From an uncultured Bacilli bacterium (GTDB lineage: Bacteria; Bacillota_I; Bacilli_A; RF39; UBA660): a DNA stretch of 64,000 bases. The stretch spans positions 18,766 through 82,765 of the forward strand of contig CALVIZ010000001.1 in NCBI GenBank assembly GCA_944331865.1. Reading direction: 5' to 3'. The notes under the pieces are model-generated. The model was not told where the DNA came from. It saw only the letters and a list, made by a program, of their open reading frames with translations, and searched no databases. The translations under genes and the position numbers were made by a program. This document shows, in pieces, positions 38,374-48,441 of this stretch; position 1 is the stretch's first letter; each line of letters starts with the position of its first letter.

Positions 38374-38448
38374 GCAGGTGTAGTACAATGGCTAGTATAC
38401 GACCTTGCCAAGGTTGAGATGGGAGTTCGATCCTCCTCACTTGCTCCA
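38374..38448 (+). tRNA. tRNA-Gly (anticodon GCC), CCA encoded
   Basis: Manual cloverleaf. Acceptor GCAGGTG/CACTTGC, D-stem GTAC/GTAT, anticodon stem CGACC/GGTTG with loop TTGCCAA, T-arm GGGAG-TTCGATC-CTCCT, discriminator T plus CCA. 75 nt. Confidence 0.9.
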
Positions 38449-38874: not shown

Positions 38875-40765
<1,891 letters not shown>

Positions 40766-40783
40766 AAAGGAATTGATTAAATT

Positions 40784-41137
40784 ATGAATATTAAATATAT
40801 ACAAGTAGGAGATTATTTATTACCAAACTTAATAATAAAAAAAGAAACTTTTCAGCAAATTGGAAAGTACGGTTATTTAAGATTAAATTATATTAAGAAA
40901 TATAAAAAAGGATTATATCAATCATTATTAATGAAAAACGAATTAACAAAACATCTTCTTTCAGTCAGTAATGAATGTGAAGAAAGATTAAATGAATTAA
41001 TGGATAATTATATTAAAATTGATGAAAGACTATCTGAAAAAAATAAGGAAATAAATCAAATTGAATGGGTAAAATTGATGAATAATTACAAAAATATGGC
41101 TGAAGAAATTATATTAAAGGAGTTAATCTATGTTTGA
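40784..41137 (+). CDS. tnpV: TnpV-family transposon protein
   Basis: 117 aa. 'YIQVGDYLLPNL...GKYGYLRLNYIKKYKKGLYQSLLMKNELTKHL...WVKLMNNYKNMAEEIILKELIY' matches the TnpV pattern of Tn4451-type elements as I recall it. Confidence 0.7.
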   Translation: MNIKYIQVGDYLLPNLIIKKETFQQIGKYGYLRLNYIKKYKKGLYQSLLMKNELTKHLLSVSNECEERLNELMDNYIKIDERLSEKNKEINQIEWVKLMNNYKNMAEEIILKELIYV

Positions 41138-41158
41138 TATTATTTATAAGCAAGCAAC

Positions 41159-41185
41159 GGATTTATACTCCCACCATATAAATCC
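41159..41185 (+). promoter_or_regulatory. candidate oriT hairpin upstream of the relaxase gene
   Basis: Perfect 9-bp inverted repeat GGATTTATA-CTCCCACCA-TATAAATCC, 27 nt before the relaxase ATG. Confidence 0.4.
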
Positions 41186-41211
41186 ACTTTTTAGAAAGGA
41201 TAAACCTTTGT

Positions 41212-42516
41212 ATGGCAACAACTTCAATTTGGAGTATTAAAAATAATTTAAAACAATCTATAAATTATATCATCAACCCAAAGAAAACAATTAATAAAGA
41301 TTATGGTAAAGACACTTATAATTATCTTGAACTTAACGATAACGAGTATAATTTTAAACAAGAAAAAGTATGTTATGTTAGTTGCATAAATTGTTCTGAA
41401 AATAATCCTTATGATGATATGAAGTTTACAAAAGAACAATATGGAAAAATAGATGGTATCCTTGCTTTTCACGGTTATCAGTCTTTTAAAGAAGGAGAAG
41501 TAACTGCTAATATTGCACACGAAATTGGAGTTAAGTTTGCAGAAGAAATGTTTGGAGATTATGAAGTGGTTGTTGCTACCCATCAAAATACTAATCATAT
41601 ACACAATCATTTTATACTGAACTCCGTTTCATTTAAAACTGGAAAGAAATATAATAACAATAGAACTAATTTAGCAAAATTAAGACAAATATCAGATTCA
41701 ATTTGTGCAGAATATGGATTAAGTGTTCTTGAAGAAGATGTTGGTTATAAAAATACCTGTAAATATAAAATTTTAAATAATGATTATTATAAAATAATGA
41801 AAGAAGATTTAGATAATGTCATAAGTTATTCAGTTACTCTTAAACAAGTTATAGAACGACTTAAAAAAATAGATTATCAGGTATATTCTCGTAATGGTAT
41901 AATAACTATTTATAAAGATGGATATGATAAAGTTAGAATAGAAAAAGCATTTGGTAATGATTATTCAATAGATAGTATAAATAAGCGATTATATTCATCC
42001 AGACAAATTATATTTAAACCTTTAACACAAAGAATTATCTTTGAAGAATATTCTAAAACTGATAAACATCATAAAGGTATATATGGCTTATATTTATATT
42101 ATTGTTATTTATTAAAAGTCTTTCCAGAAAAGCATCCTAAACAATATTTACCTTATTCAATTAGACAGGATATAAAAAAGATGAATCAAATATCTGAAGA
42201 AACAAGATTTATGGTAAAAAATAATATTGAAACTATTGATGATTTAAAAGCATTTTCTAAAAATAATTATCAAGAATATAGTTTACTAATGAGTAAAAGA
42301 GAAAATCTTTGGAAACAATATCATAGAGCAAAAAATGAAGAGGATAAATCTAAAATACTCACTGAAATAAATAATATTCAACCATTAATTAAAGAACTTC
42401 GCAAACTGAAAAATTATTGCAATAATATTGAAGAACGTTCTAAAATTATACAAAATAATATTAATAATTTCGATAAAGATTTAAACAAAGAAAAAGACAA
42501 TTCTAGGTGTTTATAA
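41212..42516 (+). CDS. relaxase/mobilisation nuclease (MobA/VirD2 family)
   Basis: 434 aa. N-terminus 'MATTSIWSIKNNLKQSINYIINPKKT' and the histidine triad 'HQNTNHIHNHFILNSV'. Confidence 0.8.
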   Translation: MATTSIWSIKNNLKQSINYIINPKKTINKDYGKDTYNYLELNDNEYNFKQEKVCYVSCINCSENNPYDDMKFTKEQYGKIDGILAFHGYQSFKEGEVTANIAHEIGVKFAEEMFGDYEVVVATHQNTNHIHNHFILNSVSFKTGKKYNNNRTNLAKLRQISDSICAEYGLSVLEEDVGYKNTCKYKILNNDYYKIMKEDLDNVISYSVTLKQVIERLKKIDYQVYSRNGIITIYKDGYDKVRIEKAFGNDYSIDSINKRLYSSRQIIFKPLTQRIIFEEYSKTDKHHKGIYGLYLYYCYLLKVFPEKHPKQYLPYSIRQDIKKMNQISEETRFMVKNNIETIDDLKAFSKNNYQEYSLLMSKRENLWKQYHRAKNEEDKSKILTEINNIQPLIKELRKLKNYCNNIEERSKIIQNNINNFDKDLNKEKDNSRCL

Positions 42517-42534: not shown

Positions 42535-44301
42535 TTATACATCAATTAATTTTATTTCTGAATTTTGAGTAATTAAGTTGTAAACTTGTTCCATATCAAT
42601 AAATTTGGATTTTATATTTTCAGCAAGAATTAATAAGTTTACTACATTTAAAGCCCCACCATTAATTTTGGTAGATTGTGCAATATTTTCTAATTTTTCT
42701 TCAAATTGGCCGTTAAATTCACTTGATACAAATAGGAAACTAAATTTATTTAATAAATCGGGAAAATTATTCCACCATTTGTTTGAATTTATTTTTACAT
42801 CTCTTTTATTGTTTTCCTCCACATATCTTCTCATTTCATCAGCCTGTGAAATTGGTAATGAATATCCTTTAGAGTATGCTTTAGTATCAATAATAGTTCC
42901 ATAGTTTTCCTTTAAATTTTCGGTATAGATTATTCCGTCAGGTTTTCTTCCACCACCTAGATGAATGCCTTTATAACCACATTCTGAAACAAATAGGTCA
43001 ACAACTTCCATTTCAAATTGTCTATTTGATTTTGGATCATATGCTAAATCAATTAAATTAAGATAATTGTGAGATATATTTTCAAGCATGTCTCTACAAA
43101 AATCTTTTAACCTTAATGTATCGCTTTTGCCACTTCCAATAGAGTTAATAGGAATAACTAAATTTTGAATATCATCATTTAATATGAAACCATTACTAGA
43201 TTCTTTAACAAATAATCCTATATTTTGTAAACCAATTAGATCATCCCTAATTGTTTCAATAGACTCTTCAAATTCTACTTCTTTTAATTTTTCTTGTAGT
43301 TTTGTTAAAGAGAGTGGAGAATTAGAATCCGATAAAAATTTTATCAAATATGCGCGCCTATTTCTTATATAATATCTATCAGTTGCTTTAGTACATAGCA
43401 TTTCCCAAAACACATTTTTTGGGAGCCTTGAAACTTTATTAATCCCTTGCAATTTTCTATAAGCTTTTAATCCATCAGGTGTAATTAAATATGCTTGTCC
43501 TAGTTTTTCTGTGTATTCTTTGTTACCAACTATAACTTTATATTCTTTTTCAACTTGTCTAACTAATCCTAATTTTTGAAGCCATTTACATATTTGTCTA
43601 GCATATTTGTCTGATGAACCATCCCAATCAGATTTCATTTTATTCTTTTCTTTCAAATCATCTGTCATAGCAAGAGATGTAAGTAATATGTTTTGAGGTA
43701 GCGAGGTAAAACCTTCATCTCCTACAAAACCTAGTTTACTACCAATTTCAAATTTTGATAAATGTTCTCCATTTGATAAAAGTTGTAAAATTCTTGAAAC
43801 TGGTGGATATTTTAAAATAGCATTTAATAAACATTCTTTTTCTTCGTTAGAATTATTTTCAGTCTTTGAATATGCTAATCCATCTTCAGTAATTTCAAAG
43901 GTATCATCTTCACCGTTATATTTTATAAATCCACACAAATGAGCCCATCTTAAAAAACTATCAGAAGCCCAATCCGTTATATAAGGTTTTACTTGACCAC
44001 AAACTGAAGCTTGTATAATTGAATTACATTGAGAATTTTTACGAGGAATTGAGTGTGTTCCAACAAGATCTGCATATGTAATTTTTAAAGGTTTAGATTT
44101 TAAAATTGTTTGAAATTTTTCTACTAAATTTCTATCATCAACAAGCATTGGTAATCTAGCAATAATTAAGTTCTCATGAAATTTAGATTTATTATCAAAA
44201 ATTTGAACAACATTTTTTAAACTGTTGAAATCTGAAGCATCTTGTGACCATCCAAATGATCTTTTTGATGAATATTTTGTTGATAATTCTATATTACTCA
44301 T
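42535..44301 (-). CDS. FokI-like type IIS restriction endonuclease
   Basis: 588 aa, collinear with FokI as I recall it: 'SFGW', 'FLRWAH', 'GLAYSK', 'YPPVSRIL', 'GSSDKYAR', and a cleavage domain 'LGGGRKPDGIIY...IIDTKAYSKGYSLPISQADEMRRYVEEN' with the PD...D-x-K residues intact. Confidence 0.9.
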   Translation of the reverse strand: MSNIELSTKYSSKRSFGWSQDASDFNSLKNVVQIFDNKSKFHENLIIARLPMLVDDRNLVEKFQTILKSKPLKITYADLVGTHSIPRKNSQCNSIIQASVCGQVKPYITDWASDSFLRWAHLCGFIKYNGEDDTFEITEDGLAYSKTENNSNEEKECLLNAILKYPPVSRILQLLSNGEHLSKFEIGSKLGFVGDEGFTSLPQNILLTSLAMTDDLKEKNKMKSDWDGSSDKYARQICKWLQKLGLVRQVEKEYKVIVGNKEYTEKLGQAYLITPDGLKAYRKLQGINKVSRLPKNVFWEMLCTKATDRYYIRNRRAYLIKFLSDSNSPLSLTKLQEKLKEVEFEESIETIRDDLIGLQNIGLFVKESSNGFILNDDIQNLVIPINSIGSGKSDTLRLKDFCRDMLENISHNYLNLIDLAYDPKSNRQFEMEVVDLFVSECGYKGIHLGGGRKPDGIIYTENLKENYGTIIDTKAYSKGYSLPISQADEMRRYVEENNKRDVKINSNKWWNNFPDLLNKFSFLFVSSEFNGQFEEKLENIAQSTKINGGALNVVNLLILAENIKSKFIDMEQVYNLITQNSEIKLIDV

Positions 44302-45184
44302 TTTCTACCTCCCCATAATTTGTAATTAAAACTTCAATTGTATCATTTTTATTTTTTCTTCTATAATTAGAATTATTAAATGTATTTTCTATTATATAAA
44401 CATTATATTTTTTTGACCACTCAGTTAAAACTTCGTTTTTCCTATTATTAGCGATTAGTACATTTGATAATGCAAATTTTATTTTCCTAGAATTTAAGTT
44501 ATCTAATATATTTAATAATTGTTTTTCATCATCAACTGTCCAATCTTTTACACCTCTATTGCCGTCATTATAACTACCAGTCGTAATTAAATATGGTGGA
44601 TCACAATAAACGAAATCATCTTCTCCCAATTTAGAAAAATCAAAATCTACAAATTTTTCTTTTGAAATTTTTATGTTAATATTGTTTATTTTATCAACAA
44701 ATTGTTTTAAATTTTTCTTTGTATTTTGATTATAGCAACTTCTATTTTTTCCAAATGGTGTATTATATTTCATATTTTGATTAAATCTTATTTGATAATT
44801 AAAACTATACAAAATTAAAGTGTAAAAATCTAAAACTCTTTCATCAATATTTTCATATATATAATGATTATATTTGTTTCTTAATTTTAAAAATGCTTCT
44901 GAATTTTCTTTATTCAAATTATTAAAATTAATATTATCTTCAAGTTTATCAATCACTTCATTAGCTGTATTATCAGAAAAGTAATTCATTAATTCACATA
45001 ATGGCTCAATTACATCATTATAAATTACGGTTTCAGCATCAACATTAATTCCTACATTAAATCCACCACCAAATAAATCAACAAATGTATTTATTTTTTT
45101 AGGAAATTTGGGAATTATTTGATTTAATATTTTATATTTACCACCAACATAATTTAATGGAGATTTTATATATACCTCACTCAT
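44294..45184 (-). CDS. Dam-like (D12 class, alpha-group) N6-adenine DNA methyltransferase
   Basis: 'SPLNYVGGKYKIL', 'FVDLFGGGFNVG', 'YCDPPY'. Overlaps the R gene start by 8 nt. Likely start is the ATG at 45184 after GGTGA. Confidence 0.85.
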   Translation of the reverse strand: MSEVYIKSPLNYVGGKYKILNQIIPKFPKKINTFVDLFGGGFNVGINVDAETVIYNDVIEPLCELMNYFSDNTANEVIDKLEDNINFNNLNKENSEAFLKLRNKYNHYIYENIDERVLDFYTLILYSFNYQIRFNQNMKYNTPFGKNRSCYNQNTKKNLKQFVDKINNINIKISKEKFVDFDFSKLGEDDFVYCDPPYLITTGSYNDGNRGVKDWTVDDEKQLLNILDNLNSRKIKFALSNVLIANNRKNEVLTEWSKKYNVYIIENTFNNSNYRRKNKNDTIEVLITNYGEVENE

Positions 45185-45185
45185 C

Positions 45186-45893
45186 TTAATCACCATTTAT
45201 CCTTTTTATAGAGGAATTAAAATATTTTTCATCTAATTCAAAACCAATATAATTTCTATTAGTTTTAATGGCACTAATTGCGGTTGTTCCTGACCCCATA
45301 AAAGGGTCTAAAATCAAATCGTCTTTATTACTATGTATTTTTATTAGATATTCTATTAATTTTAACGGTTTTTGCGTTGGATGATATCTTTTGCAACCAC
45401 CACCACTTTCAGATGGAATGGAAATAACACTGCTTTCATATTTAGCGTTTTGTCTGTTATACGTCCATTTTCCAGGTTTTACAAACCAAATAATCATTTC
45501 TATATCTGGAACATACCTTCTATCTCTATTTCTAGGCATTGGATTAGTCTTTTTCCAAATTAATGTATCTTTATAAACAAAACCTAAATTTTGTGCATAA
45601 TTAATAATTTCTGTCGCTTTTTTAAAGTCATTAAAAACTAATAAAGAACCACCTTTATTTAATAATTCATAAGATTTTTTTATCCAAGGTTTATTATTAA
45701 ATTCCTTATCCCATTCGCCAAAATCAGTTCCTTTTCTAGGATTTTTTCTATCTTTCATTGTATGAAATTGAGATTTCTTTGATATTACGTATGGAGGGTC
45801 TGCAATAATTAAATCAACTTTTAAGTTTTCTTTAATCATTTTATTCATACCTTTGTTACAATCGATATTATAAATATTATTGATTTTCATCAT
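45186..45893 (-). CDS. beta-group N4/N6 DNA methyltransferase (DPPY first, FxGxG last)
   Basis: 'LIIADPPYV' near the N-terminus and 'LDPFMGSGTTAISA...NYIGFELDEKY' near the C-terminus. RBS GGGAGGTG. Start is the ATG at 45893 or 45890. Confidence 0.85.
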   Translation of the reverse strand: MMKINNIYNIDCNKGMNKMIKENLKVDLIIADPPYVISKKSQFHTMKDRKNPRKGTDFGEWDKEFNNKPWIKKSYELLNKGGSLLVFNDFKKATEIINYAQNLGFVYKDTLIWKKTNPMPRNRDRRYVPDIEMIIWFVKPGKWTYNRQNAKYESSVISIPSESGGGCKRYHPTQKPLKLIEYLIKIHSNKDDLILDPFMGSGTTAISAIKTNRNYIGFELDEKYFNSSIKRINGD

Positions 45894-45994
45894 TACACCT
45901 CCCAAACAAGAACATTATAACTAATAAAATTATACTATAAAACCGCTAATTATTCTAGATTTTCCCAAATATTTATAAAAAAAGATGGTAAAAG

Positions 45995-46003
45995 TGATAT
46001 AAT
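45995..46003 (+). promoter_or_regulatory. extended -10 element (TGaTATAAT) for the AAA_13 ATPase gene
   Basis: TG at 45995-45996 and TATAAT at 45998-46003, about 32 nt upstream of the ATG at 46035. No good -35 element. Confidence 0.35.
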
Positions 46004-46034
46004 ATTATGCAAACAACTTTTGGGCGGTGATAGT

Positions 46035-48224
46035 ATGAAATTCGAGTTTTTTAATTATGAAACAAAGAAAAAAATTAACTTTGAAACAGAAAAACATTTA
46101 ATAGCAATATATGGTAAAAATGGTAGTGGTAAAACGACATTTAGTAGAATTAATTTATTTGATAGTAAATATGTATTTAACGAGGATTTTATATATTCTA
46201 ATGTTTTTAATGTATCAGAAAAAGGATTTACTCAAACATCCATAACTAAAGAAAATTTTTCTGGTTTATGGTTAGGAGAAAATATTGTTAAAATTAGACA
46301 AGAAATTTCAAAAATTAGAGAACAGGAAAAAGAAATAAAGGAAAATTATCAGCAAATAGCAAGTAAATATGTAAAATTTTTTTCTGAACAAGGTATCCCA
46401 TTTAATTACGAGCAAAAAACAAAAGAAATTAAAAATGATAACTTCAATTTAACTGATGAAGATATTACTGTTCAAGCAAGCAAGTACATTGCTTCTTACA
46501 CATTTAAGACAGATATCAAAAATAAAACTGAACTAAAAGAAAAAATTAATTATTTAAAGAAAAATGATATATATAATAATTTGATTTTAAAAATACAAAA
46601 TAATAAATTATTAAGTGAATTACTATTAAAAGAGAAAAATAATTATGTTACTATTTTAAATAAGAGAATTGATATACTAAAAAAGAACCAAGAAATAATA
46701 AAGAAAACAGAAAATATATTTAAAGAAGATGAAATAACTGATGATATTAAAATAAAAGTACATGAATGGTATTTAATACACGAAAATAAAGATCATTGCA
46801 TTTTTTGCGGAAATAAAAATATAAATGATTCGTTAGAAAAGTGGAAAACAGTATTTACTAATACAAATATAATAGAAAAACAAGATATTATTAAAGATTT
46901 GGATAATATAATAGATGATTGTACTAAAATTGTAAATGAAAAAATATACAAATCAGTAGATGAAGAAATAATTGATTACATAAATACTATAACTGAAAAA
47001 ATTAAAATAGCAAAATCTATGATTGAAATAGGAATTTATGAAAATATTAATTTTGATTTAAATATAAAAAATATTAAAATAATAGAGATAAGGGAGTTAA
47101 CAAATAATATTATTAATTATTCCATGAATCTATCAATTAATAGTATAGAATTTTATTATAATGCCCAATTATATAACGAGAATTTAAGAAAAACTAAAAC
47201 TAATGAATTAGATAAATTAATGGATACTGAGGGAGAAATAATTGCTAGAAATATTAATGATATATTTAAGAATTTAGGGTTAAACAAAAATATAAATATT
47301 ACTGTTGATAAACACTCTGTTCCACATAAATTTGCTTATAGTATTACAAATCATAAGGATGTCAATGAGTTGAGTGATGGTCAAAAGCATAAATTAGCAC
47401 TTGCGATTTTTATAAATTCTATAATAAATGATGATTTAACAAATAAGGTAATTGTTATAGACGATCCTGTTGTTTCATTAGATATTTCAAGTTATATATT
47501 GTTTAAACAATTTCTTGTTTCAGAATTAATAAAAGAAAAATTTAAGGATTCAACTAAACTAATATTGTTAACACATGACATTACTTATCTTTACATTCAA
47601 CTTTCAAATATTTTTAATGATAATAATATGAAAAATGATACTTGTGTGTATAAGTTATCTAGTGACAAAATTTCTGAAATACCAATTGATTATATTAAAA
47701 CTGATGATATATCATTATTTAAATTAGCACTTTCAAAATGTTCAAATATTCAAGAATTAAAAAGTTTAAATGTAATAACTAATAAAATTTTTAGAATAAT
47801 TATTGATATACGATTAAGATTTTATGGAATATCTGATACTTCTGAAGTTGGTCATCAATTACTACCTATTGATAATGACAAAAAAGAACTGCTACAAACA
47901 TACAGCAATCATTTATCTAAAGTATCGAGACAAAATAATCCGATATTATGTGATATATATAATAGTATTTTATACATTAAAAACACTGCCGAATTATTTG
48001 GAATTAATGATTTTATTAGCAATAAAGAACTAAATAACATAAAAAATATTATTAGCAACAACATAAATGGAAATATTAGTGATGATATTTTCAATGTAAT
48101 TAATTCAATAAGCAGTTTCTTAAAGAAAACAACAAATAAAGAAATGAAAGGATATGTAGAACATACACGTGTTTCTTATACAAGAAATTTAATAGGTTTA
48201 AGTTTAGATGACTTTTTTGAATAA
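46035..48224 (+). CDS. AAA_13-type ABC ATPase with long coiled-coil insert and CxxC motif (PrrC/RloC-like putative anticodon-nuclease defence protein)
   Basis: Walker A 'GKNGSGKTTF', then about 410 aa of K/E/I/N-rich helical insert containing 'DHCIFCGNK'. Signature 'LSDGQKHKLALA', Walker B 'VIVIDDPVVSLD', 'LLTHD'. About 230 aa C-terminal domain of unknown fold. Start is the ATG at 46035 after GGCGGTGA. Confidence 0.6.
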   Translation: MKFEFFNYETKKKINFETEKHLIAIYGKNGSGKTTFSRINLFDSKYVFNEDFIYSNVFNVSEKGFTQTSITKENFSGLWLGENIVKIRQEISKIREQEKEIKENYQQIASKYVKFFSEQGIPFNYEQKTKEIKNDNFNLTDEDITVQASKYIASYTFKTDIKNKTELKEKINYLKKNDIYNNLILKIQNNKLLSELLLKEKNNYVTILNKRIDILKKNQEIIKKTENIFKEDEITDDIKIKVHEWYLIHENKDHCIFCGNKNINDSLEKWKTVFTNTNIIEKQDIIKDLDNIIDDCTKIVNEKIYKSVDEEIIDYINTITEKIKIAKSMIEIGIYENINFDLNIKNIKIIEIRELTNNIINYSMNLSINSIEFYYNAQLYNENLRKTKTNELDKLMDTEGEIIARNINDIFKNLGLNKNINITVDKHSVPHKFAYSITNHKDVNELSDGQKHKLALAIFINSIINDDLTNKVIVIDDPVVSLDISSYILFKQFLVSELIKEKFKDSTKLILLTHDITYLYIQLSNIFNDNNMKNDTCVYKLSSDKISEIPIDYIKTDDISLFKLALSKCSNIQELKSLNVITNKIFRIIIDIRLRFYGISDTSEVGHQLLPIDNDKKELLQTYSNHLSKVSRQNNPILCDIYNSILYIKNTAELFGINDFISNKELNNIKNIISNNINGNISDDIFNVINSISSFLKKTTNKEMKGYVEHTRVSYTRNLIGLSLDDFFE

Positions 48225-48335
48225 TGTCTATTGATTTTTAAATGTTTATCATATATAATTTATTTAGTTGATTTAATCCATCTTGGGAGTGTAATTTTTC
48301 TTATACGTGTATAGTTAAGGCTCCATTTAAAAATA

Positions 48336-48373
48336 ACTTACGAACTTTTTATTGTTCGTAAGTTTTTATTTTA
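48336..48373. terminator. bidirectional rho-independent terminator
   Basis: ACTTACGAAC-8 nt-GTTCGTAAGT followed by TTTTTATTTT on +, and T-rich on the other strand as well. Confidence 0.7.
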
Positions 48374-48441
48374 TATAAATAATTATTAAAAAATAGGTAA
48401 AAATCATAAAAGTAATTTACTTTTTTTCATCTAAAATATTT

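Follow-up and report, generated by a model that had tools for sequence, protein, structure and literature searches.

A FokI-family restriction-modification operon with two separate methyltransferases, predicted cargo of a Tn4451-like element in an uncultured gut Bacilli lineage

We analysed a stretch of 64,000 nucleotides, referred to here as the window, from the genome of an uncultured gut Bacilli lineage (1.19 Mb, 25% GC). The features of the locus are collected in Table 1. Three coupled genes, the ORF positions of which were re-checked, form a minus-strand operon in the order M2, M1, R. Direct reading of the junctions confirmed the arrangement given in the original prediction: the TAA stop of M2 is followed by a single g and then by the ATG of M1, and M1 shares 8 nt with R (ATGAGTAA). 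An alternative in-frame ATG of M1, located upstream at 45196, would add four residues; in two relatives (L006 and L007), M1 starts at the MSEVY position, as in the 296-aa reading. Compared with four diverged relatives, each of the three genes shows purifying selection (dN/dS 0.03-0.14). In the relatives L001-L007, homology at the nucleotide level stops at about 46004-46006. A scan of the region for promoters and terminators gave no signal above chance, and since promoter-like sites were no more numerous than in shuffled sequence, the promoter listed in Table 1 is a weak assignment.

Table 1. Features of the locus; positions are counted from the first nucleotide of the window.
Feature	Position	Strand	Description
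tRNA-Gly(GCC)	38374-38448	+	just beyond the recombinase end of the element; ARAGORN
Mobility module	38879-42516	+	adjoins the R-M operon; Pfam-based
Large serine recombinase	38879-40765	+	Pfam Resolvase + Recombinase
TnpV	40784-41137	+	Pfam TnpV
MobA/VirD2-type relaxase	41212-42516	+	Pfam Relaxase
R	42535-44301	-	588 aa; full-length FokI-family Type IIS restriction endonuclease; motifs 'RKPDGIIY', 'IIDTKAY'
M1	44294-45184	-	296 aa; predicted alpha-class Dam-like (D12) N6-adenine methyltransferase
M2	45186-45893	-	235 aa; beta-class DNA amino-methyltransferase; motif IV DPPY before motif I FMGSG
M2/AAA_13 intergenic region, divergent	45894-46019		RBS GGGAGG; sequence read directly
Promoter-like TTTATA-16-TATAAT	45941-45914	-	weak match in the M2/AAA_13 intergenic region
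AAA_13 ATPase	46020-48224	+	734 aa; divergent from M2; Pfam AAA_13 5e-16

The R protein contains four Pfam domains, all passing their cut-offs and following each other in the FokI order D1-D2-D3-cleavage (FokI_D1, PF02981, 1.5e-35; FokI_dom_2, PF02980, 8e-47; FokI_D3, PF16902, 9.8e-14; FokI_cleav_dom, PF09254, 2e-67). Its residues 11-577 are collinear with residues 3-572 of FokI (PDB 2FOK/1FOK; E 3e-155, 45% identity), and scores of this size are not expected by chance. In the alignment, the FokI catalytic residues D450, D467 and K469 correspond to D455, D472 and K474, which are invariant in 13 relatives. Residues D483 and R487 of FokI belong to the dimer interface of the cleavage domain; their counterparts in the window, D488 and R492, are invariant across the family alignment. 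The collinearity with FokI and the intactness of the catalytic residues, both claimed beforehand, are thus borne out, and R is apparently a complete and active FokI homologue.

M1 is a Dam-like enzyme (Pfam MethyltransfD12 6e-38; TIGR00571 dam 9.8e-44; T4 Dam, E 8.5e-42) with a single D12 domain, a single DPPY motif and dN/dS of 0.09-0.14. When compared with seven fused methyltransferases, it matched their C-terminal halves at full length (47-54% identity over ~285 residues) and gave no significant match to their N-terminal halves. Judged from these alignments, M1 is orthologous to the C-terminal, CATCC-specific half of fused enzymes of the M.FokI type, the link to the CATCC domain running through the fused methyltransferases that adjoin FokI homologues, and through the literature, rather than through the M.FokI sequence. 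According to the literature (PMC3985630), the N-domain of M.FokI serves GGATG and its C-domain CATCC. M1 would be expected to methylate adenine at N6 in the CATCC strand.

M2 belongs to the beta class (Pfam N6_N4_Mtase 2.9e-48), with DPPY near residue 32, FMGSG near residue 197 and dN/dS of 0.03-0.05. Pfam and motifs therefore agree with the earlier assignment of two separate, translationally coupled methyltransferases, one of the beta and one of the alpha, Dam-like class. The N-terminal, GGATG-specific Dam-like module of M.FokI type was found neither in the operon nor in the rest of the 1.19-Mb host genome, and the same holds for any other GGATG-type methyltransferase; the sole other genome match to the N-type module search was a Dam-like gene on contig C15, with 26-29% identity. 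It would consequently fall to M2 to cover the second strand.

Which base M2 modifies deserves closer consideration, as N4-cytosine had been put forward as a possible target, which would make the two strands differ, with m4C on one and m6A on the other. The beta class includes m6A as well as m4C enzymes, M2 has weak matches in PDB to the m4C enzymes 8S9M (9.5e-13) and M.PvuII (1.9e-8), and the GGATG/CATCC site does offer cytosines, on the CATCC strand only. However, the catalytic motif of M2 is DPPY, present in every methyltransferase module of the family, whereas m4C enzymes typically carry SPP[YF]. By far the closest relatives of M2 are m6A enzymes: M1.HpyAVI (PDB 5HFJ/5HEK) aligns at full length (E 2e-58; residues 6-233 of M2 with 3-230), followed by M.MboIIA (5e-25) and CcrM (1.3e-22). 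Moreover, if M1 serves CATCC, M2 must act on GGATG, a strand without cytosine. On these grounds we reject N4-cytosine methylation by M2, which retains hardly any probability. Given the DPPY motif of M2 and its full-length match to the N6-adenine enzyme M1.HpyAVI, the most likely modification is m6A in the GGATG strand.

The original prediction set the split layout of methyltransferases against the fused M.FokI. A special status of this layout is not supported: the same operon occurs in distant lineages, and BstF5I and Prevotella Pin25611FI are published examples of GGATG being served by separate methylases that differ in class. An enzyme of the fused M.FokI type is one polypeptide of ~650 aa with two D12 domains; in the window there are two separate genes, M1 representing the C-terminal (CATCC) module. 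Of the 60 related loci that were classified, 36 have a fused double-DPPY methyltransferase of ~650 aa ahead of R. Since the arrangements found beside FokI-type R genes comprise fused N+C, beta+C, N+X and beta+C+N, the textbook fused M.FokI is only one among them. Woesebacteria and further unrelated genomes likewise contain operons of beta, Dam-like and FokI-like genes; one Bacillus locus combines a beta methyltransferase with both Dam-like modules. M2 is 62-69% identical to the beta methyltransferases occupying the same position in other FokI-type operons. A beta gene is directly followed by a C-type D12 gene in 7/7 loci of the window clade and in 5/7 sampled relatives; in the remaining two, a D12 gene lies close by in opposite orientation. 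The next gene is a FokI-type R in 7/7 clade loci and in three sampled relatives, while a fourth has it convergent nearby.

In the tree of C modules, the beta-paired ones mostly form deep, separate branches. Together with the presence of the operon in distant phyla, this indicates that the layout is old, and a recent replacement of the N-terminal half in this lineage was rejected on the same evidence. The beta+C layout is, as far as sequences tell, widespread, and the window system appears to be an ordinary member of the FokI-family systems. At least four interchangeable strand-specific modules seem to serve FokI-type nucleases: the N-type Dam-like, the C-type Dam-like, the small beta and the 316-aa 'X' type. 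The proposed independent recruitment of methyltransferases stands insofar as interchangeable sets occur beside FokI-type R genes, and fails for M1, being an orthologue of the C-terminal half of fused enzymes.

Pairs of beta and C-type genes devoid of a FokI-type R also exist (L071, probably L117 and L120). Such orphan pairs raise the question whether R in the window is a silent or attenuated passenger, in a unit functioning mainly as a methylase pair with an epigenetic or anti-restriction role on the element. We consider this quite improbable: R is full length, keeps all catalytic and dimerisation residues, is free of stops in 8 clade members, has dN/dS of 0.08-0.11 and, through its 8-nt overlap with M1, forms part of a single operon.

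FokI itself, from Planomicrobium okeanokoites, is specific for GGATG 9/13 (R.FokI, PDB 1FOK/2FOK) and is accompanied by the fused M.FokI. The window system resembles it in the collinearity of R over four domains and in the shared catalytic and dimerisation residues, in the correspondence of M1 to the CATCC-specific C-terminal half, and in the location of methylase genes upstream of R on the same strand. It differs in that its methylases are unfused and a beta-class enzyme replaces the missing GGATG-specific N-terminal half, in the change of Asn13 to Asp in R, and in being located on a mobilisable element. M1.HpyAVI (H. pylori HP0050) shares with M2 the DPPY and FxGxG motifs, the small size and an alignment over the full length, and is likewise one of two strand-specific methylases in a Type II system with an asymmetric site. 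Unlike the enzyme predicted here, it recognises GAGG/GGAG/GAAG; its partner M2.HpyAVI is of another kind, not Dam-like, and the nuclease is not FokI-like. Systems of the BstF5I/BtsCI type (M1-M4.BstF5I; Cup_ORF1489, Nfl_ORF1032; Prevotella Pin25611FI/Pin17FI) also employ separate strand-specific m6A methylases for one asymmetric site. M3.BstF5I is similar to the N half of M.BtsCI, a fused FokI-type methylase, and M2.BstF5I to its C half; M4.BstF5I falls into a different topology class, so that mixed methyltransferase classes were already documented for GGATG. Their nucleases, in contrast, have two catalytic sites, cut 2/0 and are unrelated to FokI (PMC2831314).

We then turn to site specificity. 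The recognition domain had been described as diverged; identity to FokI is 44% in D1, 50% in D2 and 39% in D3 against 45% in the cleavage domain, and the recognition subdomains have diverged no more than the latter. In FokI, Asn13 contacts the adenine of GGATG (PMC2673415). The aligned residue in the window R is Asp21, and in an alignment of 13 family members at least 90% have Asp at this position, so for the clade GGATG is a probable rather than an established specificity. Among the other residues that we take to be base contacts of FokI, Arg79, Lys225 and Arg228 are identical in the window R and Glu220 is changed to Asp.

The change of Asn13 to Asp, the identity to FokI of just 45%, the long branch (0.79) carrying the window clade in the R tree, and the preference of the nearest characterised M2 relative for GAGG/GGAG instead of GGATG would all fit an R clade and a beta+C pair which, with the same architecture and mechanism, recognise some other asymmetric site. 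Were this so, R would be a natural enzyme of FokI architecture with a new Type IIS specificity, of interest to restriction-enzyme suppliers. We nevertheless regard it as unlikely. Asp is the family norm and occurs also where the partner of R is a fused methyltransferase of the M.FokI type, and the comparison of domains given above shows no excess divergence in the recognition part. With about 50% identity to C-terminal halves, M1 falls within the isospecific range, considering that M.BtsCI is 62% identical to M.FokI and M.StsI 48% to M.BtsCI, all of them serving GGATG (PMC2831314). Finally, of the 512 pentamers in the host genome, only one is more strongly depleted than GGATG/CATCC (O/E 0.59), and the list of the 15 most depleted words contains no single-base variant of GGATG, at any position. 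The avoidance count suggested as a check thus revealed the depletion in the host; it is not decisive for specificity, because O/E values overlap between non-carriers (0.70-0.77 in three congeners) and carriers (0.64 and 0.76 in two others). R and its methylases most probably recognise GGATG/CATCC.

We judge it likely that the locus encodes a functional FokI-family restriction-modification operon, with GGATG/CATCC as the most probable site and two m6A methylases, carried as cargo by a Tn4451-like element. M2, M1 and R would be transcribed in this order and translationally coupled, the order suggesting that the methylases are translated before the nuclease. An R monomer would bind the asymmetric site, most probably GGATG/CATCC, by D1-D3, then dimerise through the cleavage domain and presumably cut downstream of the site in the FokI manner. 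Protection of the host would come from two N6-adenine methyltransferases, one for each strand. The CATCC strand would be methylated by M1, which corresponds, as a separate protein, to the C-terminal half of M.FokI; M2, of the M1.HpyAVI type, would fill the role of the absent N-terminal half and methylate the GGATG strand. The operon contributes one more FokI-family system, clearly bounded and apparently active, from an uncultured lineage of gut Bacilli with a small genome. Its practical value is modest: a GGATG barrier is predicted for transformation or engineering of these bacteria, and pre-methylation of the M.FokI type should get past it.

The accessory nature of the operon is shown by the absence of R from 24/24 same-genus genomes. 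The block of recombinase, TnpV and relaxase genes next to the operon also flanks the R-M operon in L004, and the same gene row is found in Tn4451/Tn4453 (TnpX serine recombinase, TnpV, Mob relaxase). In contrast to these transposons, the window cargo consists of the R-M operon and the AAA_13 ATPase gene instead of a resistance gene. Neither terminal repeats nor a second copy of a tRNA end could be convincingly identified for the element. By gene content, the operon is predicted to be cargo of a Tn4451-like mobilisable element beside tRNA-Gly. In L001, where the adjoining R-M operon is 98% identical, the AAA_13 slot holds a different AAA_13 protein of about 26% identity. The AAA_13 gene of the window appears to be a second cargo gene of defence type, occupying a slot with variable content.

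The window operon is a FokI-family Type IIS system of a widespread 'beta + C-type' methylase subtype, carried on a mobilisable element. Its three co-oriented genes lie exactly where the original prediction placed them, and both junctions are as it described: the TAA of M2 (the beta-class methylase) is followed by one base and the ATG of M1 (the Dam-like methylase), and M1 overlaps R, the nuclease gene, by 8 nt (ATGAGTAA). R is indeed a collinear FokI homologue. Besides the domain order given in the table, sequences from FokI crystal structures align with it over residues 11-577 (E 3e-155; 45% identity counted over the whole alignment), and equivalents of FokI D450, D467, K469, D483 and R487 are all retained. 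The recognition domain did not prove to be particularly divergent, since identity to FokI is 44% in D1, 50% in D2 and 39% in D3, on a par with 45% in the cleavage domain.

Positions of the R-M genes, element features and compared loci (window coordinates unless a locus or contig is named)
Feature	Position	Strand	Description
M2	45186-45893	minus	235 aa; Pfam N6_N4_Mtase
M1	44294-45184	minus	296 aa; Pfam MethyltransfD12
R	42535-44301	minus	588 aa; Pfam, all four FokI domains, in order
Homology with other carriers	42.5-46.0 kb		R, M1, M2 and leader
Left end region segment	38438-38676		matched in L006
Relaxase 3' end segment	42287-42435		matched in L006
AAA_13 ATPase	46020-48224		slot beside M2
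Candidate right end	48254-48396		just past AAA_13 gene
AAA_13 ATPase, L001	2132-4282		slot beside M2
L006	1047-1477		short matches to both window segments
L066/L067	6001-12735		Bacillus sp., GCA_900112075.1
L068	9358-12094		beta + C-type + FokI-type R locus
L071	4832-7628		beta + C-type pair
Dam-like gene, host contig C15	26217-27185		sole other methylase match

The nuclease is kept by purifying selection, as are its methylases. In comparisons with four relatives of about 78-85% protein identity, dN/dS was 0.03-0.05 for M2, 0.09-0.14 for M1 and 0.08-0.11 for R, and none of the eight members of the window clade carries a stop in R.

To place this layout, one genome per prokaryotic species was scanned for FokI homologues, which gave 65 loci, and the genes upstream of R were classified. 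Pairwise BLASTP separated four methylase modules, all of which, M2 included, contain DPPY. The N-type Dam-like module comprises the N halves of fusions, a 356-aa Poribacteria gene and a 346-aa Bacillus gene; the C-type comprises the C halves, window M1 and stand-alone genes of 283-295 aa; the small beta module comprises M2 and its relatives; and the 'X' module is a 316-aa Poribacteria gene with motif I about 90 residues ahead of DPPY, a spacing resembling the 'topology E' described for M4.BstF5I, a methylase of a different topology class. The M.FokI layout, a single N+C fusion of 643-693 aa with two DPPY motifs, occurs at 36 loci, mainly in Clostridia and also in Spirochaetota, Bacteroidota, Synergistota and others; annotated Lactococcus and Weissella plasmids likewise have a fused 'Dam family' methylase adjoining a FokI-like gene. 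The window layout was found at seven loci (uncultured Bacilli MAGs and one contig in an Acidaminococcus bin). Separate N and X genes occur at 11 loci of sponge-associated Poribacteria (L031, L040, L042, L044-L046, L049, L050, L052, L053, L063), and modules of these two types are joined in proteins of 625 and 830 aa at two proteobacterial loci (L057, L058).

Relatives of M2 number thousands. Neighbourhoods were looked up for seven of them (62-69% identity), and three have the identical operon of beta methylase, C-type D12 methylase and FokI-type R: a metagenome contig, where it adjoins an OLD/UvrD pair, a Woesebacteria contig and another genome assembly. In a Bacillus relative (L066/L067), a row of three methylases of 244 aa (beta), 295 aa (C-type) and 346 aa (N-type) is convergent with a FokI-type R; the GGATG strand appears to be covered twice, a redundancy recalling BstF5I with its four methylases. 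For one relative (L071), which has the beta + C-type pair, the fetched flank contains no FokI-type R; in the remaining two, a D12 gene lies close to the beta gene but on the other strand, and FokI-type R is again missing. The neighbours of the L071 pair, a HamA-domain gene plus a helicase, resemble a Hachiman pair. At L068, another beta + C-type + FokI-type R operon precedes an OLD-family ATPase/TOPRIM gene, a UvrD-like helicase (the two forming a Gabija-like pair) and then an integrase, surroundings that look like a defence island.

Published systems offer parallels. M.BtsCI is fused in the manner of M.FokI, its two halves matching M3.BstF5I and M2.BstF5I, and BtsCI homologues are accompanied by two separate methylases (PMC2831314); in the active GGATG system of Prevotella intermedia, M1 and M2 are separate and both strands carry m6A (PMC5608340). 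The predicted architecture of two separate methylases of different classes stands, while its supposed unusualness does not, given these parallels and the recurrence among M2 relatives. The R tree recovers the eight members of the window clade as a monophyletic group (100/100) lying among R genes whose methylases are fused; another beta + C-type lineage branches elsewhere, and N+X systems form a clade of their own. In the C-module tree, most C modules that pair with a beta methylase branch deeply and fall outside the fused clade, which argues that the split layout is old and not a recent replacement.

The strands can be assigned by orthology. M1 is 47-54% identical over about 285 residues to the C halves of fused methylases, and none of the N halves matches it significantly in pairwise BLASTP. 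Since the N-terminal domain of M.FokI acts on GGATG and the C-terminal domain on CATCC (PMC3985630), M1 is the predicted methylase of the CATCC strand. The rest of the host genome holds no N-type module or other GGATG-type methylase, its sole other match being a Dam-like gene 26-29% identical to N- and C-type modules; judged by gene content, it must be M2 that protects the GGATG strand. The suggested m4C on one strand is probably wrong on two counts. First, M2 has DPPY, and its alignment with M1.HpyAVI (5HEK/5HFJ; E 2e-58) runs the whole length of the protein; M1.HpyAVI is an N6-adenine methylase of the beta class and belongs to a strand-specific pair that serves an asymmetric-site system (PMC5173035). 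Second, GGATG contains no cytosine.

The case for GGATG as the predicted site rests on four points: the orthology of M1 to the CATCC module, the even conservation of all four R domains, the equal divergence of known isospecific enzymes (M.BtsCI is 62% identical to M.FokI and 48% to M.StsI, all isospecific; PMC2831314), and pentamer depletion. Among 512 pentamers in the 1.19-Mb host genome, just one is more under-represented than GGATG/CATCC (765 observed, 1290 expected). The case has two weak points. One is that depletion extends to non-carriers: observed/expected ratios are 0.59 in the host, 0.64 in G042 and 0.76 in G041, all with R, versus 0.70, 0.75 and 0.77 in the same-genus genomes G014, G002 and G010, which lack it (three versus three genomes). 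The depletion could stem from these gut bacteria being exposed to GGATG systems in general. The other is FokI Asn13, which contacts the adenine of GGATG (PMC2673415): this position is Asp in the window protein and in at least 90% of 13 aligned family members. We consider recognition of another site unlikely. The most under-represented host pentamer is CACTG/CAGTG (0.52), strongly depleted also in four of five related genomes sampled (G002, G010, G041, G042; 0.35-0.61), a pattern suggestive of long-term restriction directed at some site that contains CAGTG.

Pfam identifies a large serine recombinase, TnpV and a MobA/VirD2 relaxase to one side of the operon, where tRNA-Gly(GCC) lies just beyond the recombinase end, and a divergent AAA_13 ATPase to the other side. 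None of the 24 species representatives from the same genus has R. Nucleotide homology with other carriers spans the operon and leader (table), and in L004 extends to the mobility genes as well. L004 (CAVKYO010000076.1), an 8.7-kb contig labelled Acidaminococcus fermentans, contains the operon together with the relaxase, TnpV and recombinase genes, all sharing about 83% DNA identity with the window; its G+C of 25% is at odds with the label, and mis-binning or a transfer of very recent date is the probable explanation.

The AAA_13 proteins of the window and L001 are only about 26% identical, while the adjoining operons share 98% DNA identity; in L004 this position is taken by an unrelated ORF of 710 aa that lacks a Pfam match, and the position looks like a hypervariable companion-gene slot. 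Past the slot, a stretch of 74-147 nt is kept in L001 (79%) and L005 (88%), with differing cargo between it and M2, and is a candidate conserved right end of the element. In L006, matches to the relaxase 3' end and the left end region adjoin each other on the operon's far side, an arrangement that a copy of the element would show if it were circularly permuted, tandem or deleted.
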